Source: Amoebophrya sp. A120 (Eukaryota; Protista; Dinoflagellata). Taken from it: a stretch of DNA of 64,000 bases. The notes under the pieces are model-generated. The model had not been told where the DNA came from. It ran no database searches and saw only the letters and a program-made list of their open reading frames with translations. Location: the NCBI GenBank assembly GCA_905178155.1, contig CAJINV010000008.1:3931420-3995419 (forward strand), written 5' to 3'. Positions 4,650-52,300 of this stretch are shown here, piece by piece (within the stretch, counting starts at the first letter, position 1; every line of letters begins with the position of its first letter). The translations under genes and the position numbers were made by a program.

Positions 4650-5947
4650 TATCCAGAAAAAAACACCCATCCCCATCCATTTTGCTATTTTTTCAACAAA
4701 CAAAAACAAGTTTTTTTTCAAAAAATTTTAAGGGTTTTCATCAATCGGCATCGGAAGCAATCACTTTAGTGCTGACATAGCTAAAGTGGCGTCATAGCTA
4801 AGAACTTTTGACATGAATTAAAGTAGCTAGGTCCATCGCAGGTCATCGCAGCAGGCGACGACTTCCAGATCCTGCAGAAGCCTCTTTTCGCCGCCGCGCA
4901 TCGACTCTGGCCCCATCGCTTGGCCCATTTTGTAGTGGCCATATCGCCATGCCACCGCGTCGCCACATGGGATGAACGCGACGGACCTGGGATGGATTTT
5001 GACATGTGCTCTCCTTTCGGTTCGAGTGGATAATACAAATTCCGGACGGGGAGACTTTTGCTGTTCGGCAAGGCTGCCGAAGCAAAAACTTTTTTGATTT
5101 TGTTTTTTTCCAAAAAAATTTCGTTTTTGAAATTGACCTTGTTTTTGATGGATGATGTTTTTTCGCACGACGGTACCACAAATATTGGGTCGACCCATCC
5201 AGTCCATTTTCTTTTAGAAGTGGCTGGATGGGTCGAAGCAATATTTGTGGTACCGTCGTGCGAAAAAACATCATCCACAAATTCTAGTGTCATTTTGAAA
5301 ATTGCAACAATTCCTACTTTTTTGTGGATGATGTTTTTTCGCACGACGGTACCACAAATATTGCCTCGACCCATCCAGCCATTTCTAAAAGAAAATGGAC
5401 TGGATGGGTCGATCCAATATTTGTGGTACCGTCGTGCGAAAAAACATCATCCATCAAAAAAGTGAGCATTTTCAAAAACGTGGCATTTTTTTGCAAAAAA
5501 AAAAAATGTTTTTTTTTCGTGAGCTGGAACGCAAGATCTGCTCTGCAATTATCGATGATAATTGCGCAGCTGGTGCTGCTCCCGCTAATTCCAATGGTGC
5601 AGCCGCGGCGTTCTTGGCGGGTTGTCCTCTACCTCTGGGTATCTGTGCGTGACTGCGCCAAAAGTTCAAAACCTCCATGGGGCCAGAGGTGCCCAACGAC
5701 GAGAACGGGCTTCGGCGAGTTGTATTTCTCGGTCGTGGTTCGGATCTCGGTTTCAGCTAGCTACCTCAAAATCACTTAGCGAAAGTATGTGCCACTGACG
5801 CCACTAGCTAGCTCCATCAATTAGTACTTCTCGCAAATGCCATGCAAAAAATATTTCGGAGTTTTTTATTTCTTTATTTATTTTTCATGATTTTTTTGCA
5901 TTGAAAAAATGGCAAAATGGATGGGGATGGGTGTTTTTTTCTGGATA
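4650..5947. mobile_element. 1.3-kb non-autonomous TIR element (MITE-like) with central double hairpin
   Basis: ~47-bp TIR tatccagaaaaaaacacccatccccatccattttgc... / ...gcaaaatggatggggatgggtgtttttttctggata; 5-bp TSD atctg at 4645-4649 and 5948-5952. Confidence 0.9.
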
Positions 5948-17009: not shown

Positions 17010-20000
17010 ATGGAGGTTCTGCTCCACCACGTGTCTTACGCGGATGTTTACTTCCACCTCGAAAACGGGGAGACCAAGCAGACGCTGCGGCTGCGCGCCC
17101 ACCGAGAGCGGCTGGAGCGGGTTTGCAAAAAGGTGTGTGCCTTTCTGGACCAGGATTTGGTCAACGAGAACGAGGGGGACGACATCCGGGCGAAGAACTG
17201 CACGACCAAACTATGGCGCGGGGACACGGGGGAGCAGGACAAGCAGCGGTCGCCAAAATCCATGGCCAGTCCACGCCCGGGGTTCGCGCAACATCGTGAC
17301 TCGAAGAACAACGCGAGCAAAGACTCCAATCGAGTTTCCCCGACCAGCGAGCAAGGAGGAACATTAGCGGTCGTCGGCCTCGGCGGGGGTGGCGTAGACA
17401 ATAACAACAGGCAGTTTTCGGCCGACAGCAGCGCAGACAGTAGCGCAGACGAACAGGAAGTTTTCCAGGATGTAGCACCTGAAGATGCTGCGGACCACGT
17501 CGAACAACAGAATGATCCCACGAGGCCGCCGTCCAGCTACCCCTCGGAACGGGAGAGCAGCACCCGGGAATTGGGCGCTTCTTTGGTGAGACCCTCGCTA
17601 GAGGATGTTGCGGGATGGAGCAGGAGCACTGGGAACAAGATGAACAATTCCAACCCGCCGGACGGGAGTGGCTCTACTTTGGGGTCCTTTCAGCTGGCCA
17701 GCCTACCGACCAGCCCGCTAGACGAGCAGGTACACTCCGGTGCGCCGGCGTCCTTCGTGCAGCGCTCTAGCAGTACCAGCACGCAAGTGCAGGTTGGGCA
17801 GGCGAATCCCGACAATACCAGCGATATCTGCATCGGGTTCGACCTGCAAGGTATGGACCAACCATTTTACAATCATGCCTCGACGCAGGACAGTATGACC
17901 ATAAATTTAGATGGTGGAAATACTACGAATTCTAATGGCGCAGTTCTTACGTCGGCGTTGAGCGGTGCGGGTGTCACTTCTTCTCTCCCGCAACTGAGTA
18001 AAAACTCCGCATCATCTCCAACGCCCGCACCTGCTTGCGCTGCAACCAACATGCCAATGGCCGCCACAGCTTCTTCAACCACCACAAAAACTACCATTTC
18101 GCTGCAGCTTCTCGCTGAGGCCTTTTTTGACGGTGACGCGGAGCACGCGAAAAAGTTCAAGCTGAATGCCATTGTGTTCCCCGTTTTCGCCTTGGCCGTC
18201 GAATCCTGGCTGGAGTCCATCCTGGTTCGGCGGGGCGGGTGCGACTTTCTGAAGATCTACTTCCTTTCCGGCTCGCACCAACGAACAAAAAGGAGCGAAA
18301 CCTTCACCACCGAGTCCGCGGCCCGGTGCCTGGTGCGGTTTGCGGAGCGCGTGCTGAAGACCCGGTTTTTCGCTGCGGCAACTCATTCGAACGCCAGCAG
18401 TGTCAGGAACTCCGCCCATTCAACAACGACAGAAAATACCAAGGTAGTGCCTCCGAAGTGGCTCCGGGATTCCACCAGCAGTCGTTTGGACGCGTTAAAC
18501 ATCTGTCTGCGCTGTATCAGAATGAAAAATCCCCCCTCCCCATATCAAAACGAAGTTTCTGATGCTGGATTTTCGTACACAAATCAGATTCGTCTTGCTG
18601 GCGAGGACTGCAGGCCCATACTAAGCCTGAGCAGACAGATTTTAGCCAAGGCGCTTTGCATGACAGACGTCTACGCTGTAGGTGCAACAGCATGACAAAC
18701 TGCCTGTAGAGTGCGGCGGAGCTTGTGGAGTTGCTTTCATGCAACACAGAGATGATTTGTGGTCACAAATCAGCAGCGCAAATTTTCGAAGGCGTGCCTT
18801 GTCGATATGGGGAGGGGGGATTTTTCCTTTTCATACGCTGCATTCACAGCGGCCCCGGGGTGTTTCTGTACGACGAGAATGTGCGGTTTATGAACAACGA
18901 GTGTCTACCCTATTTGGATTCGGATCGCCAGCAGTGCGTTCAGTACTTTCAGAAGCACTTCCCGCACAGGGACTGGGCACAGGTATAAAGGCCACGAATT
19001 TGATGGTCTTATCGAGTGTATTAACGTTGTAGCCATGTTTTTCGGAAGATTCACACCTTTTATTGATTTATATAATGACGAGACGAGCTCATTAACGATG
19101 TATGACCACCTGTGCTGGTCCTCGACTGGTGCCAAAGCCAAAAGTGACTCAATTACAACTCAGGAATTCGCTGTCTCCTTCATTCTCGCCGAGGGTGCGC
19201 CCGCCCGCGTTTCGGCGATCACGCAGTCCCTGCACCAGTTTCGGCCCAATTACGTGCATATCCTGCGCCCCAAATCCTACCGCGACGAGCCCTTCCTCCG
19301 CGCCGACGGGGTCCAAGCATTACCCTTTGACAAAGCCTCGGTCGCCCCTGCCATCCCCATCAATGGCCACTTTGTCAGTAGTTTGAATTTGTTTTTCCAG
19401 CAAGGAGCTGGAACATCAGGCAACATGGTGATGAGCCCAGGAGGCGGAATGCACAACCGGAGCCTGCTGCAGCAGCGGGAGCGCACCTACACGGGCGTGG
19501 CCGAGCTGGACAACCGCATCAGGCTCGTTTTGAAGGAGATGCTGGCCCACAAGAAGGCGGTGGAGCAGCTAGGATCCTCCAGGGACGCGGAGCTAGCCGG
19601 GTTTTGGCTTCGGAAGACGCGGAAGCCGGTTTTGTGCGTGTTGATGGTGGAGAAGGAGGAGGAGGTGCAAGTGGTCAACAGTTCCCAGCAGAAACTCGCG
19701 AAGGTCCGCAAGTTTTACCGCGGCCTGAACCTCGAGGTCAGCATGCCGACCGGGTCGCTGTGTGCGGAGCGGAATTGCATCGGCCAGGCCGTCGCCGCGG
19801 ATCCGACCTTGCGGCGGGAGCACATAAAACTCGTCGCGGTCCTCTCGCTGCCGCAAATTGGCAGTGGGGCGTCCTCGAGCAGTGCGGCGAATGTGAACAA
19901 GATGAGCAATCCTCATTTTGCAGGAGCTGCGACTACATCGATACTGAGTGACGCGCTTTTGTCGCCCACTTTTCAACCGATGAACAGCGGTGGAGTAAGT

Positions 20001-21620
20001 GGGGCGATGAATGGATATGGTATTCCTGGAATGCAAGCCTTGTCCTCGGACACCACTGGGAACGCCGCGGCCAGTCGTGTGGTGGGTAGCTACAACAACC
20101 ACGACAGTGAACTAGCAAAATTAGCGCCGGAAACGCCACCGCACCCACCTGCTCGCACACAGCACTCGTCACGAACGGCGACGCTGCTGAGTTCGGAAAA
20201 CGAGACTGATGTGCAGTTGCGAGGACTGGACACAACTTCTGCAGAAGAGGAGCAGGACGAGCAGGGGGAAGCAAAAGTAAAAATAGCACCACTTGCTGCA
20301 CCAACAAACGACACGGCGACTGCAACGGCTGGCACAAGAACAATAGAAAACACCCAACTGCTCGAGCAGGCGAAGGGTCTTATCGAGAAGCAGAACGAAA
20401 CATCGTCGAGGCTAGTAACCATGAAGCCACCTCCCGGTGGAGATCATGGAGGGCCACCGTCTTATGCTGCTCCGGTGAAACTTGCTGAAACTTCTACCCC
20501 AGCTGGTGGTGCACATCTTCAGGAGCAAACAGCAACAACACTCCAAATGTCCACGTCCATATTGTCGACTTCCTCAACGACCTCAAACAATAAAAGCCCT
20601 CAACTACGAGGACTAGATCAGAACGATTCCTCGCAGACGCAGTCGCCACGACAGATGGAACAAGCACAACAGCACCATGTAGTACAACTTCCGCAGCAAC
20701 ACCTCGTCCCCTCGCACCTTGTGCTCCATCCCGAACTAGAAGATCTTGGTCGGGTAGGAGATGTTGGAGTAGGCACTTTTGGTGGCTCAAGTGGCCAAAA
20801 CAACAGGGCCGCGGAGGATCTCGGCTCGGTGCCGGTCGAAGACCTCGACTCGCCGATGTCAAACAGCTACTCCACCTCGGTGAACCTGAATGGAGGCGGT
20901 TTTAGTATTCATCCAGAAGATAACCACTACAACACGACGCCGCATCAACTACCACTACAGGAACAGGGGGTTTTGTCGCCGGTATCTGCCGCAGCCACAG
21001 GAGCTTCGGCAAATTTCATGATGATGAATACCACGGTACTAAATAAAATTGGTGCCACGAGTACAACGCCATTGAGTGGCGGGCCACCGACGTCATCAAT
21101 AAATCAACCGACAAGCACAACAAGTCGGTACCGTATGAGCAGCGCTAACATGATGTCGCCATCGCAGCTGCAGTCCAGTACCTTTCTTCTCGACGACGTT
21201 GACGAGACGAAGCAAACCAGTGCTGGTGCAACCACGAGCACCTTCACGCCAGGTCCGCGCTCCTCGGCGGGGCAGGCCAGCCTGCAGGACTCCGCAGTAG
21301 AACAAATGGCGCCGTCTGCTGGTGGCGTCACCTCCTCGTCATCCAAGCTCGTGCCCGCTCGCAGCTCCTTTGCCTCCACCTCCACAACGAGTCGCGGTGG
21401 GTATAATTCCGCCGCGTCTCCATCGCTCTGGGGAAGTGGGGCAAACCAACCCTGCAACCACCGCAAAATGTCCGGCGACCTCAACCCCATAAACCCGTGT
21501 GGTGCCTGCATGGAGTGGCTCCGGAAAATCTCGGAGAAAGAGCCCAGTTTTCGCGTGATTACCTTTGACAGCTACGAATGCGAAGCCATCTACGTGAAAC
21601 GGATCGATCAGCTTTCGTAG
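17010..21620 (+). CDS. Cytidine/CMP deaminase-like Zn-binding protein with long low-complexity insertions
   Basis: GLNLEVSMPTGSLCAERNCIG at ~19720-19780 and NPCGACMEWLRKI at ~21490; exons joined via introner 18515 and GT-AG intron ~18983-19163. Confidence 0.8.
18515..18835. mobile_element. Introner (family B)
   Basis: TIR ...gaaaaatcccccctccccatatc / gatatggggaggggggatttttccttttcata; TSD cgctg; removal gives CL-RC-IHSGPG. Confidence 0.92.
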
Positions 21621-22916
21621 AAGACAAGAGCTCGAAGACGAGCAGGAATGGCGCCCTGCCTCGTTCTACTGCTCTTGTCGACGAGGTACTACGGTCCTAG
21701 AAAGCGTAAGAGATCAAAAAAACGCCAAGACCGGAAACGACAACAAGCAGCCTCTAGATATCACTCAGCTCACTGTTCATAGTAAAATTTAACACTTGTT
21801 TCTGATTTTTTGATTTTTTGAGTTGGAAAATGAATTGATATACTATTTCAATGTACAACGACGGCGCAGCCGCATCTTCACATGGCGATGTCATAAATCA
21901 GTTTTTTAAGCATCAGGTCACGACACAAGAACGAGGAATCCTGCCGTGGTTGGAAAAAAAAGGTACCAGAAGACCATACAGTTGACTCCTTGTTCTCAGA
22001 AGTGTGATCCGTTTTATTGCTCCTTTTGGTTTTGCTGTAAATGTAAAATTGTTTGGATGTGGTGTTCTGGTCGTAAGTGGCTTTCTGTTGCGAGGTAACT
22101 CCCTACATCATGCGTTAGTTGAGATTCCCTACATCAAGCTGTCCTTACTCTTTACGTTTACCATGTGCGTGTTGTTAGGTTGCCATCCGGCTACAACAAA
22201 GTCGTCCTCTTCCCTCGGTCAGTTTTTTCTTTTTTTTGTTTTCCATCAGCGTATATATCGTTTTGCGCACATATCGCCAACAATGTGGGAGCTATAATTC
22301 ATTCGCTCACTCCCCCACCCATTCTTTGATGTGTATCCGGTGGCTTTCAGTTTCAGTCGTTGTCTTCTTCGTGGGAGCTATAATTCAATATCGATGGAAA
22401 AAAGTAGGCGCTTTTAAATCAATGCGAAACGACTATTACGACGCGAACGGCCGCAACCTGCAACGGGTTAAAGAGTCAGGAGCGTTTAGATTTAAACTCA
22501 TGCTGAAAATAATTGCGACCTGCAGCAGGAGTCAGTCTTTTTAAAATATAGATAGATCATTTTGTTGTTGTTTATTATAGTTTTCAGCTTTAGTGCAATT
22601 CTATAGTCTACCAACTGAGAAACCAACCGTCTGGGCCGGAGCCCCTGTCTCTAAAGAAACAAAGACTCTCACTCGCAGCTTGCTCGTAAGATTTAATTTT
22701 CATAAGAAGAAACGACTACACTAGAAAAAATATCAGCTACGGTCGAAACTTGAAATAGCGCATGACAAACTCACTCGGATCAAAGTTAAAGGGTGAGAGC
22801 GTACCCTTCCTCCGCCGTAGTGTCCAGGATCAGCGTGAGGAACGACATCATGACGAACGTCGCGGCGCAAACACCGTGCTTGCTGACCAACGAAAAGATC
22901 GTCTTCAGGGAGAACG

Positions 22917-23079
22917 TATCCTGTGCAAAAGTATCGCACTCGTAGTAATCCTCGCAATTATGCATTACAGATTTTCTTCTTAACCTAAAGCCGCATTACA
23001 AATTCTATTTTTCATGCTGAGCAGGAAATTTGTCATGCGATTTCCACTAAGTAGTTGTGCGATGCTTCTGCATTTCATA
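22917..23079. mobile_element. Introner-type element (family C), host gene unclear
   Basis: Starts tatcctgtgcaaaagtatcg like 51342 and 58816; ends cgatgcttctgcatttcata; near-TSD gaacg/gaagg. Confidence 0.8.
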
Positions 23080-23180
23080 GAAGGCATCCAGTTGGATGCT
23101 CGTCTTCGCGGCCTGATAGGCGATTCGTTTTGCGCATATCAGTCAGTTGTCAGTCGGTGCGTCTATGCATATTTCTATCA

Positions 23181-23213
23181 GACCAAGGAGGACAGCTTGA
23201 TGTAGTGACTCTT
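23181..23213 (+). repeat. 33-bp dispersed motif, copy 1
   Basis: gaccaaggaggacagcttgatgtagtgactctt. Confidence 0.95.
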
Positions 23214-23481
23214 CGGTTGCAGAGGTGCCGGATATTTCCATTCTCGATGGCGTCGTCCATCCTCTGTCGCAGCACTGGTTCAAAGTCTTGAATGACGATT
23301 TCACTGCAGACGAGGTTGCCGCCGCTGTTCGCAACAGGAAGAATAGCGGCCAAACTGACGACTTTGATCAACTGATGCATTTGTACAAGGCGCTGGAGAT
23401 GATCAACTGATGCATTTTTTTTTTTTTTGACTTTGATCAACTGCTGCCCCAGGTGCAGTTGTAGAGAGTGGACTCCATCTT

Positions 23482-24108
23482 GTGCTCCAGCATGAAGCTG
23501 TTTGTCCTGGCCGGTCCCGTGCGAGTAACTCGTTTCTTTGTGGTGGGCTCGAGGACGGAGATGCGATTCGATCGGAGATCTACGGCCAAGTTGCTGCCTT
23601 GAAGGCCATTCCCGATCGCCCAGTCACGCGCGACTTCTCTGAAGCAGTGCGAAGCGCGAAGCCTAAGCCGAAGCTCTGTGCTGACGCGAAGGGGCGGCAG
23701 GAGAAGACCAGAGGACCAGATGATCTGAACCTCGCCGCAGTTAAGGGGGTCACCTGGTGGAAAACCGGGTCGGGGGCTACAAGCAAGTTTGGTGGCTGTT
23801 TTCGTGTTCAGGTCATTGTGCGAAACAGCGCAGGAGATAAAGTCCCTGTTTCTCGCACGGTCTTTGTTGAGGAGCACAGCGACGACATCGACCAAGCTTT
23901 TGCCGCTGCAGTTGCTCTCCGCGCCCGTATCAAAGCGGACCCCCGGACCTACCTTGCCAACCGCATTCAGAGGACCGCGAAGAAGAAAGATGCTGCTGGC
24001 GGCGCATCCGCACTACCGGTTATCAAAAGTTCGATCAAGTCCAACCGTGCTGGACCTAGTGCGCGACCGGGTTCTGTGTTTGCTGTGCGGAGGTTTTGGA
24101 AGCCGTGA
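23482..24108 (+). pseudogene. ORF/fragment with an AP2-like (ApiAP2-type) DNA-binding domain
   Basis: VKGVTWWK...GCFRVQV...GDKVPVSRTVFVEEHSDDIDQAFAAAVALRARI resembles the AP2 beta-sheet plus helix pattern; no ATG start, upstream frame disrupted. Confidence 0.5.
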
Positions 24109-24829
24109 TATTCTCTGCGCGGACACGGTTGTCAGAGCCGGCGGTTATTGGGATACAGGGGTCTGAGCATCGACCACGTGGGGCGGGACAAAAAAAATGG
24201 AGTTCTGTGGATGTAGATACTTTTCTCCTCCACCAATGTGCGAATGCTCCTGCGGCTATGATGCATTTTGAGTCTCGCCTTTTGTCCTGCTGTGTATCGT
24301 CTATGTGAGGATCTAAAATTCAACAAATTGACTCTACAACTTTCAGGCTATCTTGTCCAGGAGGCTACCAGGAGCTGTTGCTCCATTTTTCTGGATCTTT
24401 GTTAGACCGTACGTAACGCCTGGCTCGCATGCTATGATGGATTTTTTAACTTGAAGAGGGTATGAAATTTGTCTCAGAACTGCCATTTTTCTGCTACTTT
24501 AACAGCTCGCCTTGTCCCCACCTAAACGTAGATTCTTGATTTGAATTATTTTACTTGCTAGTCGAAGTGCTTTTAAGTTTAACTTACTTTGTTTACAGTT
24601 GCTTCATGAGATCTTTTTTCCTAGGTTTACTACAGGTACTTTGGTTCTTAGCGCGTATAGTTATTGTTATGCCTGCTCTACAGTTTAGTTCTAACCGGTA
24701 GGTTTTTTTTTTGCTATTTATTAAGCTTTTTCCCTTCTTTTCCATTGCCATTGCTATCTCGCCACTGCCATTGCTGACTTCGCGGCCATACCTTCGCAGG
24801 TGGTTCGCAGGTGGTTCGCACATGCATTC

Positions 24830-24862
24830 GACCAAGGAGGACAGCTTGATGTAGTGACTCTT
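24830..24862 (+). repeat. 33-bp dispersed motif, copy 2
   Basis: Identical to copy 1; continues ggcaca. Confidence 0.95.
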
Positions 24863-25687
24863 GGCACAAACGCGCATGGCCTTACAGGATCAGCATGGTT
24901 AGGCTGAGAGCTCTCGCCTTCTGTCTTTCGATGCGGACGCACCGCATTAGCGTCCCTCCATTCAGCAAGCAACACGAGCAGCAGTCCGGCCTCTTCCGGG
25001 GCTACGTGCAACAACCAAAAGCGACATATGTCCGAAAATATATCTGGGGACGCTTCTGGCGGGTGGCAGCTCTGGGGATATCCGCGTCGCTGCCGCTGCT
25101 ACCGAGCTGCCGAAGGTGACAAGGGTGACCCTGGACGAGCATTGTTGCGCCTTCAAGTGGCGGCAGTGCGTGAACTGCTGCAAAAAGGAACGCGACGCCA
25201 GGAGCGTTCGCGAAGCAGACGCGCCGGAGGAGACCCCGCCCCCCTTAGCGGAGGTTCTGCGGAAGGAAAAAAAAGTCGTATAAGCAGACCTAGAAGACAT
25301 ATTTGCAGCGCATAATCAGACAGTAACGATTTTCGTCTCCTGCTGCAAACGCTACAGCACAAGCGGGGACTGACTCTGGAGCAGGCTTTGGACGCAGTAA
25401 CGTCGGCAATGATAAGCCGCCACGTCGAACGGGTCCGAATAGAAGCATCACGGCAGTGGACGAGATATCTGACCTTTCTGGCGAAGGCGAAGACGTTTTA
25501 TCACCCCGCTGGACTCTTCGGAGACCGGGCCTGGCCCGAAGTAGAGCGGTCCCGTTTCTCACCTATTCTCGATGTGATTGGTCCCGTTTACACTCACCTA
25601 TTTTACGTCCCCTCTACAATCACACTTCCTATTTTGATTACAAGCCAAAGAAGCTTGCTACGTACACTTAGTTTTTTCGCTGCAGTA

Positions 25688-25953
25688 TATGCATTGCAAA
25701 TATGTCGGGGCCAGGGAATTTCTGATGCTAGTTTATGTATTCTCGGCGGCGAGGACACGGCAATAGGCAGCCACGCGCGGCGAGCTTCTGGGCTCCTTGT
25801 CCTCTGTGATCGTGTTTCGCTTTCTGCGTGATAAATTACTTACATTCTTGTGCGACAGGCAGGAGGCTCTCTCCTGCTCACGCACTACAGGCTCAGGAGC
25901 CACGCGTGACAAGCATGACAAACTTCGAGACCCAGACATATTTGCATTGGATA
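25688..25953. mobile_element. Degenerate introner-type element (family D ends)
   Basis: tatgcattgcaaatatgtc / gacccagacatatttgcattggata; TSD eroded. Confidence 0.75.
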
Positions 25954-26337
25954 GCTTATTCTCACGAAGAAAGCGAGAGCACCCATAGATAGTCAAGGTT
26001 TTTTTCAAGCACGTGACGCGCAGATCTATACTCCTCAGCACCACACCACTATAGCTGAGTCCCCGTAGATACAGCGTTGATCAAGTTGTATTGCAATAAC
26101 AGTTCCAATGATCAGCGCCCACGGGCTGGCCTCGCCGGCAGTGAGGTGGATAGATCCGCTTTTTACTTTTTCTATGTTTTTTCGACTTTTTCAATGATTT
26201 TCGCGCTTTTTAGTGAAAAAGTCGCGCTTCAGCGAGCGACTCAAGTAGAATTATTATAAAACTACTGATATTACTTTTATTCTATTTTCTTCTCTTTATT
26301 TTCTCCTTTTCTCTGTTTTTTTTTACTTTTTCTGTAG

Positions 26338-27225
26338 AATATTGTTATGTAGGTCAGTTTACCACAGCCGCTTGATGCTTTAAATACGTTGACAAAGTGA
26401 AAACTTACATTTGATTTTGCATGGCTAACCACATTCCAGTGACGCAAGACTATTCTAGTCTGGCTCACATGGGGAACAAAGATGGTGGGGCACGCGCGCG
26501 CGTCGGTTCGTTCTTTCGGATTCGCAAAATGGCATGAGAGCGAGATAGAAGAAAATCGCGCTCGTTTTTTCAAATTAATGTGTAGCAGCAAAAAAAAAAA
26601 TTGTCGCGCACGCGAAGCCGTCGCGCAGCCGTCCGGGCCGCTCGGCCGCCCCCGCGCCGGGGCGCAGGGCGGTGCCGCTCGCGCCCCTGGAAGCCTTCCG
26701 CTCCACCGAGCGCACCGTGGCGCCGCGAACGCAGCGAAGAGGCGCGAGCGGCCCGGGCGGTCCGAGCGGCGCAGCCGCCCGGGCCGCTCGCTGCGCCGCT
26801 CGAGCCCGTCCCGCTCCCGGCAGCGGCCCGGAGCGCCGGCAAGGGCCCGAGCGGCCGGAAGCGCCCCGAGCGGCGCGGGCGGCGCCAGGCCGGAATTCCG
26901 ACCGGCGCGAGCGGTCGTGGGCGCGCGGCGGCCGGAAGTCTCGGGGCCTGGCCGCTGGTGGTCCAGGTGTTCGGGCCACATGGTAGGGGCCCCAGGCTAA
27001 GAGTGCAGTCGCATTTTCGAAAAAAGTGCGGATTTCTCGGTGTTAAATTTGAAAAGCGGCAAGACCCTGGCTCAGATCATGGCGGCGCGCTGTGCGGCCA
27101 ACGTGGCGACCCCGGTCGGAGGCGCGGCGCTTTGGACGGATCCCATACATGACAAAAAATATTTAAAATCCTGAACACATTTAAAGACCCTAACGGTTGT
27201 GGTAGAACTGACCTACTTGAATATT
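26338..27225. mobile_element. Putative old TIR element with very GC-rich interior
   Basis: aatattgttatgtaggtcagtttaccacagccg...ctttaaat (26338-26385) is an imperfect inverted copy of atttaaag...cggttgtggtagaactgacctacttgaatatt (27179-27225). Confidence 0.6.
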
Positions 27226-27297
27226 GACTTTTTCAATAATTCTTGAGTTTTTCTCTGTTTTTCTTGTGTTCGATGATTCTCACCTCTAACCCTGCTC

Positions 27298-27330
27298 GAC
27301 CAAGGAGGACAGCTTGATGTAGTGACTCTT
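27298..27330 (+). repeat. 33-bp dispersed motif, copy 3
   Basis: Identical to copy 1; continues gtaagc. Confidence 0.95.
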
Positions 27331-28441
27331 GTAAGCTTGCGCAGGCCACTAGCAAAGATCCTGTCCCGGAGGGCCGCCGATTTTTTCTATTTTTTTTTCA
27401 AATTTTAAATTTTTTTGCATCCACTTCCTGAACGTGGTGCTCGACTTTGTTGCTCTGGGAAACGACGCTACGCCTTTTTGCTGCAGTCGGATGACGGGGA
27501 CGGCCTCGAACTATAGAGCTTGGGCGTGTCCGCCACACAGAAGGTCCACAGCAGTCCTCAAGCTGGTATGAAAAAGCGCAAAGCTTTATCAGTGTTCGCC
27601 CCCGTGCCGCGACGAATTGGCAGACTTTTTCGTCGCCTGTGTAGTGACGCTCTGGCACTACTCCGCCGCATTCGTTAAAAGCGCATGCCGAGCTTGGCTC
27701 TCGAGCGTTTGCGACGTCCCGCCCTGTGGGGGCCACGAGAAAATGCCGGCCTTTTGTCTTTGCTCTGCGCTATCTCGTAGCGCGCAAATCCTTTTTGCTC
27801 TTAGTGTTTCCTTTTCGAGGCGCCTGCGCCGGGCCTTCCGGGAAGATGATTCTTCAGGGGCGGGATGTTGCGAGCAAAGCCACCCTCCCTGCCGCGGGGG
27901 CCGGGGAGTTGTTCCAAGACGAAAAAAATGAAGCCCACCGAAGGACGGGGGGCGGCACCAGTCCAGGCGCGTTGGGCTCTTCAAAGATTGAAACTTCGAG
28001 GATCTGAGGGGGGAAATGCTATCGAGCTCGGCACCTCTAGGCCTTTGCGCCTTATAATAAATAGACACGGCCCCACGGCGCGCGTGTCCTTGCGTTTTCG
28101 CTCTTTTGCCCGATGTCGATATTTCTAACCCGCAACGCACCGCCGGGGCCTGATCCGGGAAGCATGAACGAACAAAGATCCCGCGATGGCCGATCTCTGC
28201 TCATGGGCATAACCCAAGTAGCCAAGAGGGCGGGCGCGAAGGAGGGGGCGAGGGCTTTGGGACGCGGCCATAGCCATGGCGAGAAACGAAAGAAGGGGCT
28301 GCCTCGCAGGCGGTGAGATGTTGAGCGTGCGATAGTGCCTCCAGCCCCGACTCGCTGGCTTAGAATTTGTCTCTGGAAAATCCGTGCACGCCGCCAAGCG
28401 GCAGGAGCCATCTCCACAGGAAGGGCCATCTCCACAGGAAG

Positions 28442-28474
28442 GACCAAGGAGGACAGCTTGATGTAGTGACTCTT
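28442..28474 (+). repeat. 33-bp dispersed motif, copy 4
   Basis: Identical to copy 1; continues ggcacgaagtt. Confidence 0.95.
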
Positions 28475-29528
28475 GGCACGAAGTTGTTACAAACGGCGAC
28501 GCACGTTACCGTCCTTGTGCGATAACGAGACCAGGACGAAACCAAAACGAAGCCAGGCGGACAGCTTTCACAAGCGCCCGCCTGTGTTGAAATTTGTGCC
28601 TGCGATAATGATCCTCCGAAAAGCTTCCCGGGCCCCCAGCCTTTGGGCGCCTGTTGCCTGTAAGCCGGGGCGCCCTTTATGTTGTGCGCCCGGTGGCCCC
28701 GGGCGCGTCGTGTTGTGCATGTGGATGATGTTGTGGCGCGGCGTGCCGCCGGGCTCAATTTTTGAGCCGCACGGCACCACAAACATGAAAAAGCGCTGGC
28801 CCTCGCAAGGCTTTGCATTTCTCGCATGCCCAGGGGGTGCCGCCTTCGTTTTGCCTGGCCGGTGCTGGCTTCCCTGGTGAGCCCCAGCGCCCCGCGCAAT
28901 CATGCTTGCAGGGAAGCACCGAGTGGGAGTGCTTCAGGAAGGCGGGGCCCCCCCGGCCCCGCGTGGCTCATGCCGGGCTTCGGGTGGGCTTGCGCATGGG
29001 GTTGCGCGCCGCCGGGCGAAACGACGTCGCGGCCCCCTCTTCTAAAAAGGAAAAGCGGGAAGGCGGTGTGTCCCAGGCTGGCATGCAGCGCGCACGCCCC
29101 CCGCTTGTGTTGTGGTGCCGCGCGTGGGCGTGCTCCCTGAAAAACGAAACTGGCGAAAGTATGGCGGCCGCGAGAGAGACCAGCTGCCCGCTTGCTCACT
29201 TTAGGGCCCCCCCATTGCCCCTTGTCTTTACCCTCCTTCGGCCCCCCAGCCCGGGCCCCTCGGCGAAACTAGCAGCCCGGGCCAGGCCCTCCCGCTGTTT
29301 TGCCTTATGCAGGACACACCGCCGCGCGGCAGCAGGCGCCGGCCCGGCCGCCCGCGCGCCAGGGCGGGGCCGGGGGAATTTTTGTGGGCGGCCGGCTGTG
29401 AACGGCACGCCCGGACCCCATGGACCTGCGCGGCCTTGCTATGCTTGAATGTATGATTGCCGGCCGGCACCGCTTTGTTGGGCTGCTCGCGGCGGCCCCA
29501 GGTCCCGGCGGCCATCAGCAGCCGCCCC

Positions 29529-29561
29529 GGCCGAGGTGGACTGCTTGATGTAGTGACTCTT
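29529..29561 (+). repeat. 33-bp dispersed motif, copy 5 (4 substitutions)
   Basis: ggccgaggtggactgcttgatgtagtgactctt, continues ggcacgaagtt as in copy 4. Confidence 0.9.
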
Positions 29562-30100
29562 GGCACGAAGTTCAACATCAGATGTGGCTTTCTTGTTTTG
29601 TGCTCCTGGGAAAAACCGCAGTGCAAACTGATTGGTCAACAGGACGAAGAAGAAGCGCGTGTTGGTGTTCATCTTCATCGTATATCCCTGGTTTAACCGG
29701 ACTGAGTCTGAGTGCCAGCCATAATTTGAAGGGAAACAAAGAGTCTCGCAAACAGACTTGCTTCTGCTCCTGGTTGAATGCTCGGAAGATTCGTCTGCGA
29801 GGAAGATCTTCTTGCACTACTGGTTGATGGAAGCTAGTAAAGGCGAATCCGCAACCGCAAACGAACCCTATGCTATCTTTTCCTGGACCGAGAGGTTGAA
29901 GTTCGTTGATACACGGTGCATGGCCGTAGAACTAGAAGTAGAAAAAGAAATAGTTTTTAGCGTCGGGGTCGGTTTCAGTATGAGTTTCACCATCATCTCT
30001 TTCCTTGCTCGATACAACTGAGAAAACCGTTTTTCTCAACAGGAGATCGGATTTCATTTATGTACAGTCGTCTTTCGGAAACAGAACGAAACAACCACGT

Positions 30101-32591
30101 ATGCCGGTTCTATTCGTTGACGCGTCGTATATGTTTTCCTCCGAAGGAGGCAGTGTGGGAAAACAAGAAGAGGAACCAAACGCACGATTTCTCGGGTCAT
30201 GTCCAGATTCCACTGTTCGCCCTTCACGCGGCCCCTTGTACGACGCAAAACTGCTCGAGAAAATTTGTCGTGGCTTCCTGCGAACAAAGGTATCAAGCTC
30301 GACCGCGCACCGGCGCAGCTCAGCAGCTGGAGCTGATTCATCTCGTGGCACAGCTGCTTTTTCATCTGGAAAAAACGAAATTGGTGCCGCGCCTTCGGGT
30401 AGCGCGCTTGAAGATGATGTTGAAGAAGATAGTAGAACTACAAATGAGAAAGTCCTGGCAGAACAGCGGCCGGACGAAAAGCTATTCCGCATTCCAGGCT
30501 CAAGTACAGCCGCAGCCATCCCGATTCCCGGTTTGATTTACGCCGACGATGACGTCGAGGAGGAACAAGGACAAGGAGTTCTGAAGCACGCTTCTGAGCA
30601 GCACCAGCATGCCTCCCCTTGTTCCTCGGCTCATGGTCCTCCTAGGATGGTTCACCTTCTCAGCGGAAATCGCTCGGCTAACCTTGCCTCGCCTGAGAAG
30701 ATATCAGACCAACAGCAGCTCCGGCAACTTGCCGCCTCCGTGCCGAATATTCTCGGCGTGATTTTTTTGCTGGACGCAACAAACCGGAAAGAATTGCACA
30801 GAGCGCATGTACGAAATGTTGGAAATTTTCTAGGCGAGAAGTTGATGGTCCTGCTGTTTCCCGCTGGTGTGGCTGTTTGTGCAAGGATGTTGACTAGGTA
30901 TGAATGTATCATCCTCGTCAAAGAACTGCCGCGAAGTCGCTCTTTGTGTTTTCCTTTGCTGGCCTCCTGGCCACTTTTCATCTTCGTTGAGGTGTGAGAT
31001 GAAATGCTGTCGGTGCACAGAGCCAGCAGGCAGCGCGACAACGAACAGCACTAAGATCTCTCTCTTTCACTCCGCTTCACTGTGGGAATACTAACTAACT
31101 AACTTTGCGCCAGTGCGTGGTAAGCAGTTGCTCGCCACAGCTTGGATAATTTCTTAGCTTGCAATACGGGCTTTGTTCACCGAACTTTTTTCGACTCTGG
31201 AGCAGAAATTTCTCGCCCAAGTCGGCGGGGCCGCAGACGCTGAGGACGACGTGGGAGACCACGAGCAAGACGAGCACAAGCGTCGTGTCGGAGCACGACC
31301 AGCCTCAAGCAGTAGAGGAAAGGGTAACCGCGAGCAGAAGAATCTGAATGACTATGACAGCGGCGACAGCCTCGCTGCAGCGACAAGCGCCGACGCCGAG
31401 ACATTTATGGCAGCTTTGCCATCAATGCCCTCCGCAGCTCCGCAAGTAGCGAATGAACGAGATGAATGGACAGAAAGCCAGCAGGAGGAGCATCTTCACG
31501 CGCTGTTACACACGCTGGATGCGTCGGATTCGCAGAATGTTTTTTCCGCAAACGAAATTGTGGGGGGAACGACGGACCTTACTTCAGAAGTGCTGGGACT
31601 GACGTCCGAGGACCTGCGTCGAGCCGATCTGGGAGGAACAAACGGCAGGACCACGGACACAACGATTTTGAACACTGCAGGAGCAGTGCCCGGCGCTGCT
31701 AATGTCGGTCTTCGCGAGAATAATGGAAAAATTCATGGCGCCAGGAGCAGCAGGAGCCCAACAAACCATGATCCAGAGGACTTACTCCTGTTCCCGGAGC
31801 TCGGCTCTCCCACGGCAAAGCAGCGAGACGCCACGCAGCGGGAATTTCACGAACTATACCTGACCGGCAAGACCTTGGTTCAAGAAGCGCAGCTTGCTGT
31901 CGGGCGTCATAGTGATAATCCTCATCATGACGGCGGCGGCGATCAATACAGGGTTCCTCGTCCTCCTGGGGGCATGAATGCTGGCGAAAATAATGTTCCT
32001 TCGGCACAACGGCAAAAGACATACCACAAGAAAAACATTTTCAAAATTTCTTGGCTGTTTCTGGCAAACGAGCCACAGGGGAGCGACATGAATTTCTCGG
32101 GTACTAACAAGTCCGTTGCCAGAAAATCTCTGCCGCTGTCCCCCCTGCAAATTGCGCAGGAATTTCGCCTACACGAGGTTTTTTCATCTTCGGAGACACC
32201 AGTTTTTAGCCTCGCACGCAACGGAAAAGCCGACTACAGCTCTTTCGAGCCTTCGTTTCTCGTGCAGCCCTGCGCCCTTTCTGTTTTCGAAGAGGTGAGC
32301 GAGGAGCTGCAGGAAGGTGGTGGTCCAGGAGGTGCTACAACTCGTCGTGGTCCCTCTGTTGATCCTAGAATTCTAGGTGGCACCTCTGATGTGCAACTAC
32401 ATCGTCGGAATCTCTTGACCAGTTTGGAGCGAGACTACGGACTGAAACAGGGAATCGATTGGCTTGTGCAAAGACTGGTGTTCGCCGGGCAATGTCGAAG
32501 GGTTGTTCATGGAGGACAGAAAGAAAAACTTTCTGATTTTCAGTCCACCTCCCAGGCGAAGAGTGTAGTAACTGGGCAGCAAGAGGAGTGA
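30101..32591 (+). CDS. Divergent Arf/Arl-like small GTPase-fold protein with large insertions
   Basis: QLRQL...GVIFLLDATNRKELHRAH, WLFLANE, VQPCALS and YGLKQGIDWLVQRL follow Arf-family motif order; intron ~30808-31160. Confidence 0.55.
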
Positions 32592-42093: not shown

Positions 42094-43127
42094 GTATTGC
42101 GCCCCCCGTTGGTCCTGTCGCGGCATGCTGGACAAGCAGAAGAAGGGCACCGAGCCACCCGGCCCCGGTCGCTACCGCGCCCCGAGCTCCCTGGGCATGT
42201 CGGAATCCGGAAAAGGCCACCCAACCATACGGCAACTCGGACGGTTCGCCATGCCGCAAGCAGAGAGGATGGCAAAACCCAACAAGAACCCGGGTCCGGG
42301 GGCCTACTTTACGCCGGTCGGGAAAGACCACAGGCTGGTCTGGGCGCCAAAGTGGAGCGTCACAGGAAGGGGGGACTGTACTTATCCTTTGTTATTCTGT
42401 TAATATTGTTTCATTGTTAAACGTTTTGGTTTTCCATTCCTTCGGATTCATACTTCTCGTTTTCTCAAGAGCAAGCAGGTTTTTGTACACCACTACTTAC
42501 ATTTGAAAAAATGAACAGCCGTCCTGGTAAACAAAGAGGGCGGCCCGCTCGGTGCTTACGACGTCGACAAGCTGACCCGAAACGGCCCCGTCACCGTCCC
42601 GGCCTGGAGTTTGAAGGCCCGCATAGAAGACAAGACTGTCGCGCAGCGCAGCCCTGGACCGGCACGCTACGACCAGTACGGGAGTAAGAAAAAGATGCCC
42701 GGCGGTATTGTGAGGAAAAAAATCCCCCCTCCCCATATCGAAAAGGCACACCTCAGAAAATTTGCCATGCTGATTTGCGACCACAAATCGTCTCTGTCTT
42801 GCAAGAAGGCAACCGCACAGGTCCCGCGGCATTATGTAGGCGGTTCGTGATGCTATTGGGCCTACAAAGTCGACGCTTTTCATGCTAATCACCTAGGCCA
42901 ACACCTCTCTACTCGGGCTTGATATGGGCCTGCAGTCCTCTACTGCAAGAGAGATCCGATTTGTGTAAGCAAATCCAGCATTTGAGACCTCGTTTCGATA
43001 TGGGAAGGGCGGATTTTTCCTTTTGATAGGCGGCGACTTCTGCTACTGGCCCACCCAGGGGGAGGAAACCTCCAAGAACATCACGCGGAAACCCGCCTGG
43101 TCCTTCCGCACGGCATGGCGGAAGTAG
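42094..43127 (+). CDS. SHIPPO/ODF3-like PGP-repeat (axonemal) protein, 3' exons
   Basis: PGPGRY, PGPGAY, PLGAY, SPGPARY with APKWS/PAWS motifs; introner removal gives MP-GG-DFCYW...PAWSFRTAWRK*. Confidence 0.75.
42706..43028. mobile_element. Introner (family B, inverted relative to 18515)
   Basis: TSD ggcgg; TIR aaaaatcccccctccccatatcgaaa / tttcgatatgggaagggcggattttt; interior is the reverse complement of 18515's interior. Confidence 0.9.
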
Positions 43128-49314: not shown

Positions 49315-52300
49315 ATGACAAAGGCGAAGTTGGAGCGCAGCGGCGAGAAGTCTGCCTCGGTGCAGCCGCTCCTGCGGCTTGCAGGCACTGCAGCGGTTCT
49401 TCTTGTAACCGATACCGCATCTTTTATTTCGCGCGCCGGTCCTTGCAGCTTGTTGTTTGCGGAGGTGGCAGCTGCAGGAGCCGTGTCGAACACTACCGCA
49501 AAGATCAACGCTGGCTCATCTACCTCGGCGACAATGTCTTCAAAGACCCCGGAAGTTGATGCACCTTCCTCGGCGGGAACTGCCGAAACTGGCGCGGAGT
49601 GGCGCCGACAACTGACGTCGAACTCCACCTCCGGCTCCTCGGCCCCGGCGGCGAATTCGAATTCAAATTCTGCATCCTCGACTGGAGGTGGCCAAACAGC
49701 AGCTACAACAACAGCTCCGGCCGTGGGAACAAAATCAACCGGATCGGCGGGTGGTGGAACGACGTCCTCACCTGGCCAGACGCAGTGGCAGTCGACCATC
49801 GTGACTACGACGACCCCCACTGTGACTACTACTCCGGCACCCCCTATCCTGAGTAAAAATGCCCCCACACCACCAGAGTCAAGATGGGGAATCCGCTAGA
49901 CAAATCAGCCACCTCTGGTTGTTTCGCATGACAAGTTTATCCTCGTAGTGTAATCCTGCTTAGCTAGTTCTGAAGCATCACAGATGTAGCATATCATGCT
50001 GATTCTAGCATCATAAATTCCAAAACAGGACTAGAGCATGGCTGTCATATGGCTCCGCATGAGAAACTTTTTCGGCATGCAGATTTGCATGACAACTCTG
50101 GGGTGGGGGCATTTTTCACTGTAATACCCCCCACTTCGTACCCGCACCCCTGCGACGTGCAGTGCACGGACTATGACACGCTGTCGGGCGTGCCGACCAG
50201 TGTGACCAACTACCTGCGGTACCACGGCGCGCCCGGCGAGGAAGTGGTCGTGTTTCCAGTCAAGGAGGAAAAGAGTCTGGCACTGAGCGGGTACGAGACG
50301 GAGTGGCAGTGCTTCGCAAAGACGACGCAGGCCGACACCAAGGCTATTGCGGTCTGGAAGACGTACAAGCTCGCGTCGCAGGGGGCCACCCAGCGGAGCC
50401 GGTGTGTGCGCAAGTTGAACGGCTTTGCGGACAACAACTGGTGTCAGCCGGACGTGTATCTTCCAGGAAAAAACACCCATCCACATCCAATTTGTCATGC
50501 AAAACATACATAAAATTCTGCGTTTGTCATCCAAAAAATGGATGTGGATGGGTTTTTTTCTGTGGATAACGTGACCGTGATGCAGCGCGTCTACATGGGA
50601 ACCGCGGGCGCTTACGAGCCGACGGCGATCAGCATGACCGGTACAACCGGCGCGACCGCCGCGAACGCCCGCATATGCGACATCGTCGGAGCTTTGAATT
50701 GCCAGGCGGGGAACACGCTGCCTTCGAGCTTGTCGGGCAAGAAGGTCTGGCGCTACTACGAGAAGAGCGTTTTCGCCCTCACGAGCGGTGACTTGAGCTA
50801 CAAGCGCCCCTGGCAAGCGTCGTCGGTGTCCTTTCAAAACCTGGACCTCTACGGCTTCCATTTCCCGACCGAAGCCATGCGAAAGGCGGTGATCGCAGAC
50901 GCGCGAGCGAAACTCGGGACGGACCAGACTGATGCGAGTAACGCGCAGCTCTCGGCTATGGATGTGTCAGGATTGAAAAAGACAAAGTTGAAATAACTTG
51001 TAATGCATAAAATGGATGAAAGTTGTGACCCAGTTTCCAAGTGGCGCATGAGAAACTTGGGTAAAGCCGAAATCCAGTCTGTCATGCTGTTTGGGTAAAG
51101 ACGATGCCTTTTCTCATGCTACTTTAGCAGCTCAGTTTCTCTTTCTACCCCTCAACAGGCTTATAATCTGCCTCACTTGCCTACTCTGCAAGACAGGCAC
51201 CTTGAGGGCTGCATTTTATGCATGACAAACTATTTCAACTTTGAGGATTTCAAACCTGACACTCCCATATCGGCAGACGCGCAACAACAGGCACGCGCAC
51301 GCCGGTCGTTGGCGATGGCCCCCTTGTTGTGGAAAGAGCAGTATCCTGTGCAAAAGTATCGTAGTCGTACTAATCGCAATCTTGCATGACAAATTAACCT
51401 TTTTACCTGAATTAGCATTACAAATTCCACTTTTCTTTCTGATAAAATTTGTAATGCAATTTATACTAGTACGATACTTTTGCAATGCATAAGCAGGACA
51501 TTCTGGGGCCGTGCGACATGAATTGGGTCCATCAAATGGCGTTTCCGAGCGGCACGGCGGATTTTAGAGGTGAAATCGAAGTGGACAGTCAAGTCATCGA
51601 AAATGCCAGCTTGGAAAGGCTTCGGCAGCAGTTCCCAACGATATGCATTTTTGCAAATATGTCTGGGTCTGGATGAAACTTGTGATGCTAATTCATGCAT
51701 CTTCACAAACTGACTCTTATTTGCAGCCATGCATGAGAAATTTCATCTGAGCAGTTATGTCAACATGCGTAACCCGCATCACAAATCGCGTTTATTTTGC
51801 TGGACATTACCAACATTTGCCCACGCAGAGCCGTCCTCTTGCCGGACACAGCCAACATCTGTCCGAAACAGCCTAGGGCCAAGACGACACCGTGAGGACG
51901 ACCACAGGGGGTCCGTCTCAATGAAATGAAACGAAATGAAATGACAGAGGGTCGGCCCTATTCCACAACATGCATCACAGAGTTCACGGGCATGCGAGTT
52001 CTTTAGCAATACAAATCTCGCAATCTTCCAGACCCAGACATATTTGCATTTGATACACGACGGTTGGGATCGATCTGCCGGCAAGCGAGTACCAGGGCAG
52101 CGGTTACCTGACGCACTACATGAACATCGCGTACCGCATTCGCTACGCCCCCTTTACTTCGGCCGACGGGAAAGACCCGGGGAAGTTTCTCGATCGTGCG
52201 TATTTTCCCGCGGGCGCGACCGGCGCCGCGTTGGGGCAGCGCTCCTACCTGGATTCGCTGTTCACGGTGAAACTCTCCGACCTGCAGCAGGCCACGATCA

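Follow-up and report, generated by a model that had tools for sequence, protein, structure and literature searches.

Several site-specific non-LTR elements, such as rotifer R9, CRE/SLACS, and Tx1, nick their target at a fixed position and duplicate tens of its bases, and bacterial integrons form polarised arrays of unrelated units in which a repeated site is regenerated upon insertion. In Drosophila, R1 is described as forming tandem arrays at its target, in which the duplication stands between the copies and elements with internal deletions are intermixed (PMC3414825), and R1 junctions as precise on the 3' side, with variation at the duplication end at the 5' junction (PMC2718515). Further sources describe tandem-repeat 3' ends lacking poly(A) in RTE-like LINEs (PMC3747384), multimers of KolobokP made of tandem units in which neighbours share a direct repeat (PMC9587614), and the presence of non-LTR elements in Amoebophrya genomes (PMC7789003; PMC12130899).

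The locus analysed here lies in a window of 64,000 nucleotides from Amoebophrya sp. A120 (contig CAJINV010000008.1; positions are counted from the first letter of the window), and consists of five plus-strand copies of a motif with four segments (S1 to S4) between them. As originally predicted, four copies are identical over 33 nt, starting at 23181, 24830, 27298, and 28442, whereas any such match was reached in 0 of 100 shuffles; the fifth, at 29529, has four mismatches, and a recount gave the same spacings of 1649, 2468, 1144, and 1087 nt. The sharp 5' edge and ragged 3' edge were also confirmed: in 10 of the 10 copy pairs only 0–2 nt are common upstream of the motif, and copies 1 to 4 agree with the rightmost copy over 33, 38, 34, and 44 nt (an excess over 33 nt of 0, 5, 1, and 11 in array order). 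By edge comparison, copy 1, an exact 33-mer and presumed target-site duplication, occupies 23181–23213, copy 2 (38 nt) 24830–24867, copy 3 (34 nt) 27298–27331, and copy 4 (44 nt), the longest intact one and presumably the live target, 28442–28485. The right-hand extensions continue into the native right flank. Copy 5 (29529–29572) is exact from 29543 on, is joined to unique right flank, and has its four changes all within nt 2–14 (P 0.007 if random); we infer that it is the original right side of the site.

An inverted partial copy on the minus strand, overlooked in the original prediction, matches the motif at 22 of 24 positions (22122–22145), a score reached in 0 of 200 shuffles. It lies 1 kb upstream of the array and is accompanied by a second short sub-repeat at 22103–22110. 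The half-copies suspected within the array fared less well, since the one at 28555 is at chance level (77 of 200 shuffles) and the one on the plus strand of S3 (27640–27658), which may be the right half of a degenerate motif, is a borderline case whose score was reached in 4 of 200. The imperfect inverted arms CCAAG(G)AG...CTCTTGG do not amount to a stable hairpin, as the folding z-scores of the motif against shuffles were −0.29 to 0.06. A 10-nt match between 22076 and 29584 was not significant (p 0.076). No exact match was found for a motif 24-mer in metagenome contigs or prokaryote genomes, nor for a 20-mer in viral contigs.

Support for the assembly was sought in an Illumina DNA run (X1), which may be the source sample and hence not independent of the assembly. 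Its unitigs contain the junctions of copy 1 with S1, copy 2 with S2, S3 with both copies 3 and 4, and copy 4 with S4, with 0 differences and at depths of 43–46, and one contig spans copy 5; at the junctions sampled, an adapter or assembly artefact is very unlikely. Among the pieces listed, the joints of the left flank with copy 1, S1 with copy 2, and S2 with copy 3 were absent, no piece spanned the whole array, and no joint skipping it (an empty site) was seen. The bins with copies 1, 3, and 5 had depths of 57.6, 52.6, and 46.1, against 85,771 for an introner-like family. The motif is not a high-copy dispersed repeat, in a comparison that sees copies at 85% identity or more and that more diverged ones escape, and is unlikely to be the end of a dispersed SINE or MITE, as had been considered. 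The target looks near single-copy and intergenic. Likewise, the coding part of S1, the S2 core, S3, and most of S4 are without a further copy at or above 85% identity, so that no close donor locus appeared in this run for most of the inserted sequence; bin depths were 44–57 for these parts and 41–44 for most flank bins, although depth is no strict copy number by the tool's own warning. Two other runs gave little: X9 yielded 8 poor reads, and X3, RNA by guess only, yielded short contigs of depth 3–4 on S1 and S2; neither was taken as evidence of expression.

One segment could be identified through homology: S1 (23214–24829, plus strand) is probably the sense-oriented, 5'-truncated 3' end of an Amoebophrya-type LINE, consisting of a C-terminal ORF piece and 3' UTR. 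Its 223-codon open frame (23437–24108, plus strand) is homologous to the C-terminus of P0001, P0002, P0003, and P0004 (E 6e-60 and 74% against P0001; E 5.9e-26 against P0002), and P0002 and P0004 match each other at E 3.4e-21. P0002 and P0004 also match S1 weakly at a second place, about 220 residues upstream (p 0.008 each), which suggests an internal deletion, and S1 is probably internally deleted. Within S1, two 15-nt direct repeats (23360–23374 and 23429–23443) enclose a short insert that finishes with a run of T; this local duplication (23360–23443, plus strand) disrupts the reading frame and has 0 differences in the Illumina run. P0005, a repetitive wasp protein, was judged a chance match and left out of the alignments. 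A family HMM run on 249 frames of 21.6–30.3 kb found the S1 frame as its sole match, and no locus related to the AP2-like frame was recovered among 486 candidate stretches in metagenomes or 77 in viral contigs.

P0004 is predicted to start with a reverse transcriptase (RT)-like fold, of which it contains only the end, and to finish with the same AP2-like domain as S1. Its residues 1–260 align structurally with RT clusters (TM 0.60–0.74 over the 10 matches listed) in one Atlas search of the predicted model of a gene prediction. Among those 10, RVT_1 was present in 6, the bar for naming was reached by 1, and Exo_endo_phos was also present in 1; neighbours carry DUF6451 as well. No Pfam match at E ≤ 1 and no PDB sequence match was obtained for P0004, and in the AlphaFold model of the full-length protein (mean pLDDT 49) the N-terminus was too poor to use. 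From the pattern of the thumb region, its LINE clade may be RTE-like and APE-type. [quoted passage not shown] Its Z-scores were 5.6 against the AP2 domain of PfSIP2 and 4.3 and 3.9 against integrase arm-binding domains; against 6sy0 it gave Z 5.6 with an rmsd of 4.1 over 62 aligned positions, the best Z was 7.1, and every Z was below 8. The best Foldseek E was 0.18, Atlas gave a lead of 0.83, and Pfam found no AP2 match in the frame. The AP2-like ORF noticed originally has moderate support from frame homology, predicted fold, and structural matches. The 3' tail of S1 (24308–24829, plus strand) is common to a few other loci and closes with an 11-nt tandem of 2.5 units (24793–24820), 9 nt before copy 2. 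Two X3 contigs share this tail but leave it 21–38 nt before the motif, followed by 49–63 unmatched letters, which hints that the S1 family is not strictly site-specific.

The remaining segments are all in the plus orientation of the array. S2 (24868–27297) holds ORF-like fragments for which no homologs were found and two nested inverted-repeat elements, namely a high-copy introner-like one (25688–25953) and a low-copy, GC-rich (63%) MITE-like one with 31-nt imperfect inverted ends (26360–27204); many inverted-repeat elements occur in the window. S3 (27332–28441; 57% GC) closes with an 18-nt tandem duplication (28407–28446) that extends into copy 4. S4 (28486–29542; 67% GC) has paralogs elsewhere for its first ~290 nt, and its last 14 nt agree with the motif start at 10 positions. 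That the segments are mutually unrelated was borne out by blastn, where low-complexity GC sequence of S4 matching S2 (E 0.005) was the only hit, and by tblastx, which gave none. No common fold or sequence was found among the 3' ends or the 5' ends (lowest uncorrected p 0.033 over all pairs), and no poly(A) tail on any of the four segments. Tandem repeats of period at least 10 end two of the four, S1 and S3 but not S2 and S4, against 5 of 744 background windows in a post hoc test. Protein and frame searches detected no homologs of S2 to S4, and the comparison of 3' ends detected none shared with S1. For two S2 frames compared with longer proteins only, which is weak evidence, the result was 0 among 1248 and 2421 candidates; for related loci of an S2 frame it was 0 of 19 candidate stretches. 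A resemblance of S2 frames to the conserved helix of the family was rejected as not significant (E 0.62; p 0.02–0.6 uncorrected). In the window Rfam gave 7 matches at E ≤ 1, none within 21–31 kb; a tRNA scan gave 0. A bacterial promoter scan, a method not apt for this eukaryotic DNA, was empty.

We consider the motif copies to be, with a probability of about 0.65, target-site duplications left each time a LINE-type target-primed insertion entered a single site that regenerates itself. Such duplications have a constant left edge and a variable right edge when the first nick is fixed and the position of the second cut varies. As target-primed reverse transcription predicts, S1 lies in sense orientation with the sharp edge at its 3' end and the ragged edge at its truncated 5' end, so that the flanking duplication is fixed at the 3' end of the element and variable at its 5' end; that S1 is probably a plus-strand LINE 3' end also points to this process. 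The enzyme would be a LINE endonuclease nicking the bottom strand immediately left of motif base 1, and the free end would prime cDNA synthesis on an RNA template, in some cases (S3, S4) by way of a short stretch paired with the start of the motif, with slippage during priming leaving a tandem repeat (S1, S3). Cutting or joining of the top strand 33–44 nt further right would then duplicate that stretch on the 5' side of the insert, rebuilding the site so that the next insert could enter at the same base. The simplest order of insertion would be S4, S1, S2, S3. Since the lengths 33, 38, 34, and 44 are not monotonic, at least S2 and S3 would have used the full 44-nt copy and not the leftmost one. 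The C-terminal AP2-like domain, a predicted fold, is a candidate targeting module. We favour separate sequence-directed insertions, which we put at a little under even odds, over a single compound event, with the RT priming anew several times at an unsealed nick, which seems unlikely.

Several observations count against target-primed insertion. Only one of the four segments is tied to a LINE, RT-ORF homology having been found indirectly for S1, via P0002 and P0004, and for none of S2 to S4, whose RNA origin is presumed. Retrocopies normally leave donors, and the array looks young, as its motif copies are identical, yet most insert sequence has no close donor in the Illumina run. A site-specific element would be ill served by a target that is near single-copy, and the inverted copy at 22122 is not accounted for. 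Duplications of 33–44 nt are long, an odd feature under this reading. On the same side stand the lack of poly(A) tails, the lack of Pfam and PDB sequence matches for P0004, the X3 contigs that leave the S1 tail before the motif, and the lack of an empty site among the joints listed. The missing donors, together with the lack of poly(A) tails and shared 3' ends, the nested inverted-repeat elements of S2, and the 10/14 microhomology at the copy 5 junction, would suit DNA-level capture, in which repair of a recurrently nicked site adds excised or foreign fragments with a staggered duplication and the LINE piece is a passenger. That explanation is distinctly unlikely: S1 is oriented and truncated as reverse transcription would have it, otherwise a 1-in-2 coincidence, two of the four segments have tandem duplications at the fixed edge, and no nuclease or recombinase was found by Pfam in the 28 frames scanned, among 140 long frames in the window. 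DNA that was moved rather than copied would also lack donors if the motif were a recombination site at which a tyrosine recombinase encoded elsewhere adds circular cassettes and duplicates the core. Identical co-oriented copies between unrelated segments, a related inverted site 1 kb upstream, and the AP2 fold common to integrase arm-binding domains all agree with such an integron-like array. However, the copies vary in length by 11 nt at one edge, where a fixed crossover would not, shuffled sequences fold as well as the motif does, the segments consist of broken pieces, no tyrosine recombinase was among the frames scanned, and the ORF that contains the AP2-like domain is linked to an RT. Of the original proposal of an integron-like site duplicated at each capture we therefore retain the duplication, and regard the recombination as very doubtful.

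The inverted 22/24 copy, the borderline copy at 27640, and the many inverted-repeat elements of the window would instead be explained if the motif were the fixed end (a terminal inverted repeat or a 3' end) of a small element family, the array being nested or one-ended transposon remnants and the 22122 copy the partner end. Such a family may account for the origin of the target, but as an explanation of the array it is highly improbable: nothing is shared inward of the motif, five right ends face one left end, and the bins of copies 1, 3, and 5 are near flank depth. The motif had also been read as the 3' end of a minus-strand retroelement or Helitron, a poor fit for a sequence that is not dispersed, has neither a tail nor flanking duplications of its own, and continues into unique flank. 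Least credible of all are an assembly or adapter artefact and reinserted sequences joined to a leader RNA. Short-read contigs do leave segment order undecided where a repeat exceeds 31 nt, and the array is unspanned among the pieces listed; but junction-bearing unitigs exist, copy 5 is diverged and spanned, and the motif was absent from the metagenome, viral, and prokaryote collections searched. Against a leader RNA, the array holds no Rfam or tRNA match and the motif comes after the 3' ends of the inserts.

A far-reaching extension of target-primed insertion, which we hold to be decidedly improbable, is that an Amoebophrya LINE has its RT steered by a C-terminal AP2 domain to a self-regenerating 44-bp site and files unrelated RNAs into a polarised, growing array, some of them donorless in the genome (from host, virus, or other strains), as a retrotransposon-driven analogue of integrons. 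If the main reading of repeated target-primed insertion holds, stacking of the R1 kind at a regenerated target would be extended to cargo that is unrelated and to an ordinary intergenic site; it would also point to LINEs in which an AP2-type domain is fused behind the reverse transcriptase, a domain that would be a candidate for a new module targeting RNA-templated insertion to specific sites. AP2 domains are known in homing endonucleases and integrases (PMC4117751), and a LINE-borne one would therefore bear on the spread of myzozoan AP2 factors. Were the cargo truly donorless, the site would be a record of sequences that an intranuclear or intracellular parasite has taken up.

Literature searches returned nothing on a C-terminal AP2-like extension of a LINE or on such reuse of one site, and nothing on unrelated cargo at one non-LTR target or on tandem Alu insertions. 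Like integrons, the locus is a polarised array of unrelated 1–2.5 kb units with a repeated, regenerated site; unlike them, it shows no integrase in the frames scanned and no structured attC-like site, its site varies in length, and it holds fragments rather than intact genes. With R9, CRE/SLACS, and Tx1 it would share a long target duplication at a fixed nick, but those elements hit multicopy RNA genes or repeats and insert their own copies, and RLE-type enzymes (R9, CRE) are not indicated for this array. The S1 family resembles APE-type LINEs of the putative RTE-like clade in a predicted RT with a C-terminal extension behind it, in the tandem repeat near the 3' end of S1, and in 5' truncation, and differs from them in the length of that extension, which ends in an AP2-like domain, and in its apparent one-site reuse here. 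KolobokP multimers (PMC9587614) resemble the array in the direct repeat that neighbouring units share, but that repeat is ~450–660 bp long and has inverted ends itself, and one element supplies all the internal regions, unlike those of our array. The likeness to the Drosophila R1 arrays in 28S rDNA with R2/R1 SIDEs lies in the stacking of non-LTR insertions with the target-site duplication between them, in the edges of the copies, which match R1 junctions that are exact at the 3' side and vary at the 5' side, and in the presence of non-autonomous copies with internal deletions (PMC3414825; PMC2718515). R1 duplicates 14 bp in a multicopy rDNA target, whereas the duplications here measure 33–44 nt at a near single-copy intergenic site, where Rfam gave no rRNA match; and R1 inserts share the R1 3' end, whereas the four inserts of this array are unrelated to one another.

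The exact 33-nt motif occurs at 23181, 24830, 27298, and 28442, with 0 matches in 100 shuffles, and the fifth copy, at 29529, carries four changes, as the original prediction had stated. All four changes lie within nt 2–14 (P = 0.007 if random). The segments between successive copies, S1 to S4 (23214–24829, 24868–27297, 27332–28441, and 28486–29542), had been described as unrelated, and cross-comparison found no relationship among them. To the left of the motif only 0–2 nt are common in all 10 copy pairs, and to the right copies 1–4 track the rightmost copy over 33, 38, 34, and 44 nt in total, respectively, with the rightmost copy running on into unique sequence. The hairpin proposed for the motif folded no better than shuffled sequence; of the two proposed half-copies, the one at 28553–28567 is at chance level (77/200 shuffles), while that at 27640–27658 is borderline (4/200). 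An inverted copy absent from that earlier list was observed at 22122–22145 (22/24 nt, exceeding 200 of 200 shuffles). The motif core recurs twice in inverted orientation at 22098–22145, with 26 nt between the two sub-copies, ~100 nt beyond the end (22017) of a contig that covers the upstream gene in X3, a run guessed to be RNA.

Read support was evaluated by comparing four of the 11 runs listed with positions 21000–31500, among them the Illumina DNA run X1, which may be the assembly's own source sample. X1 unitigs with 0 differences and a depth of 43–46 contained the joints copy 1/S1, copy 2/S2, copy 3/S3/copy 4, and copy 4/S4, and one X1 contig spanned copy 5. None of the eight X1 pieces listed contains the three remaining joints, and the segment order is not fixed by short reads. 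An array produced by artefact was rejected on these junction-bearing unitigs. Because copies 2 and 4 adjoin multicopy stretches, copy number was judged from copies 1, 3, and 5, at which X1 bin depth, not a strict copy number, was 57.6, 52.6, and 46.1 (most flank bins, 41–44; an introner-like family, 85,771). A high-copy SINE or MITE was thereby excluded at 85% identity. Exact motif scans gave no match in metagenome contigs, viral contigs, or prokaryote genomes.

S1 is probably a LINE remnant. Its frame at 23437–24108 matches two database proteins, P0001 (74%, E = 6e-60) and P0002 (E = 5.9e-26), and its homologs carry Amoebophrya protein names. With P0002 as the query against 1.84 billion representatives, six matches were obtained: P0003, P0001, P0004, P0006, P0007, and a wasp protein, which was dropped as repetitive. 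The alignment of P0004 (784 aa) with P0002 starts near residue 250 and reaches the end of P0004, and the first 260 residues of P0004 match reverse-transcriptase (RT) clusters by predicted structure, with TM of 0.60–0.74 among the 10 matches listed; RVT_1 is in the cluster for 6 of these 10, one passed the bar for naming, and Exo_endo_phos is also found in one. Sequence searches of Pfam and PDB with P0004 returned nothing and the structure we predicted for these residues was too poor to use, so the RT link is good but single-sourced. We take this region to resemble the thumb of an RTE-like LINE. Since P0004 begins with an RT-like fold, the family's unnamed-protein gene models (P0001–P0004, P0006, and P0007) are probably pieces of LINE ORF2. 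A second, weak match of S1, ~220 residues farther upstream (p = 0.008 against both P0002 and P0004), suggests an internal deletion, and the first 59 codons of S1 match nothing. The last 520 nt of S1 are common to a few other loci in sequencing-run contigs. Also in S1, at 23360–23443, a 15-nt direct repeat, starting with GAC as the main motif does, flanks a short insert with a terminal T run.

This small Amoebophrya family and positions 23593–24108 of the window have in common a C-terminal AP2-like domain, predicted to consist of three strands and a helix. Among solved chains, three Toxoplasma mitoribosomal proteins of AP2 type come closest (Z 6.6–7.1), followed by the PfSIP2 AP2 repeat (Z 5.6, rmsd 4.1, 62 aligned); two integrase arm-binding domains and a GCC-box domain score lower (Z 3.8–4.3). 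As every structural match is below Z 8, the AP2-like assignment in S1 is of moderate confidence. AP2 domains are known from homing endonucleases and integrases, according to passages of PMC4117751.

The array lies between a deaminase-family gene (18894–21620) and a frame starting near 29984. The former, directly upstream, spans 908 codons and contains a split CDD/CDA-like deaminase domain of LmjF365940 type (E = 4.6e-55). Each of the four changes in copy 5 falls at an A, probably with no link to this gene. Inverted-repeat elements are abundant in the window and resemble the introners described for the genus (passages of PMC7789003). A very high-copy inverted-repeat, introner-like family is represented by three diverged copies (73%), at 22916–23079, 51341–51491, and 58813–58964. 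At 5098–5504, where spurious microRNA matches arise, long inverted repeats (184-nt arms, 90%) are nested; they look like two hairpin elements in tandem within a larger inverted-repeat element (4650–5947). Another small element has inverted copies (80%, 311 nt) at 18515–18825, interrupting the end of a long frame, and at 42718–43028. Positions 52–860 are GC-rich (69%) and contain tandem repeats in several layers, with periods of 27–120.

S1 is in the sense orientation; its 3′ end abuts copy 2 at the sharp edge, and its 5′ end, which is truncated, abuts copy 1 at the ragged edge. In R1, the Drosophila non-LTR element of 28S rDNA, the 3′ junction is precise and variation falls at the duplication's end, the 5′ junction (passages of PMC2718515), and copies, internally deleted ones included, stack at the target with the duplication between them (passages of PMC3414825). 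Considering both, we read the motif as target DNA and not as element DNA. The bottom strand would be nicked at one fixed position, with a second cut or join 33–44 nt rightward, and the target site would be restored at each insertion. Tandem repeats end S1 (period 11) and S3 (period 18), against 5/744 background windows in a post hoc comparison, and the 3′ ends of S3 and S4 resemble the motif start; both features fit priming at the nick. A motif-like segment end would also explain copy 5, its junction displaced 14 nt through partial pairing. Because a 34-nt duplication cannot template a 38-nt one, S2 would have used the 44-nt copy, earlier than S3, and the simplest order of insertion would be S4, S1, S2, S3. 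An old, diverged repeat may have given rise to the target, as the inverted copy at 22122 and the borderline one at 27640 suggest. Repeated insertion at one restored target is the likely reading; a bolder one, a capture array in which an AP2-guided LINE RT collects unrelated RNAs at the site, has a probability of roughly 0.12.

Homolog searches with S2–S4 were empty, and these segments have no 3′ end in common with S1. The array looks young, given its identical motif copies, and X1 held no second copy of the S1 coding part, the S2 core, S3, or most of S4. Donors lost by segregation, donors of foreign origin, or DNA that was moved instead of copied could each account for this absence, which keeps two rivals alive. 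The absence speaks for DNA-level capture at the site, itself an unlikely reading. Recombination would account for it if the DNA was moved, and the integron-like array of the original prediction is of this kind; a scan of 28 frames, among 140 long frames in the window, detected no recombinase family, the site is unstructured and variable in length, and the cargo is broken, which makes such an origin unlikely. The S1 tail is also present in two contigs from X3, where the match ends 21–38 nt short of the motif with unmatched letters beyond; this hints that the specificity of the tail family is relaxed. The same anatomy would result from a single compound event in which the RT, at a nick left unsealed, alternated between RNAs and the flap of the target; RNA-to-RNA jumps are documented in passages of PMC3414825, and our searches found no report of such cycling.

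Related features appear in passages of published work: tandem-repeat 3′ ends without poly(A) in LINEs (PMC3747384), non-LTR elements in Amoebophrya genomes (PMC12130899), and KolobokP multimers whose neighboring tandem units share a direct repeat (PMC9587614). Rotifer R9 appears in one reference-list line of PMC5035012. In open-licence papers we found no long duplication, non-rDNA near-unique target, or unrelated cargo of this kind, nor an AP2-like domain behind an RT. R1 recognizes its own 3′ UTR, as passages of PMC3414825 describe, whereas here S2–S4 are without the S1 3′ end; stacking at a regenerated target is a principle already known from R1.
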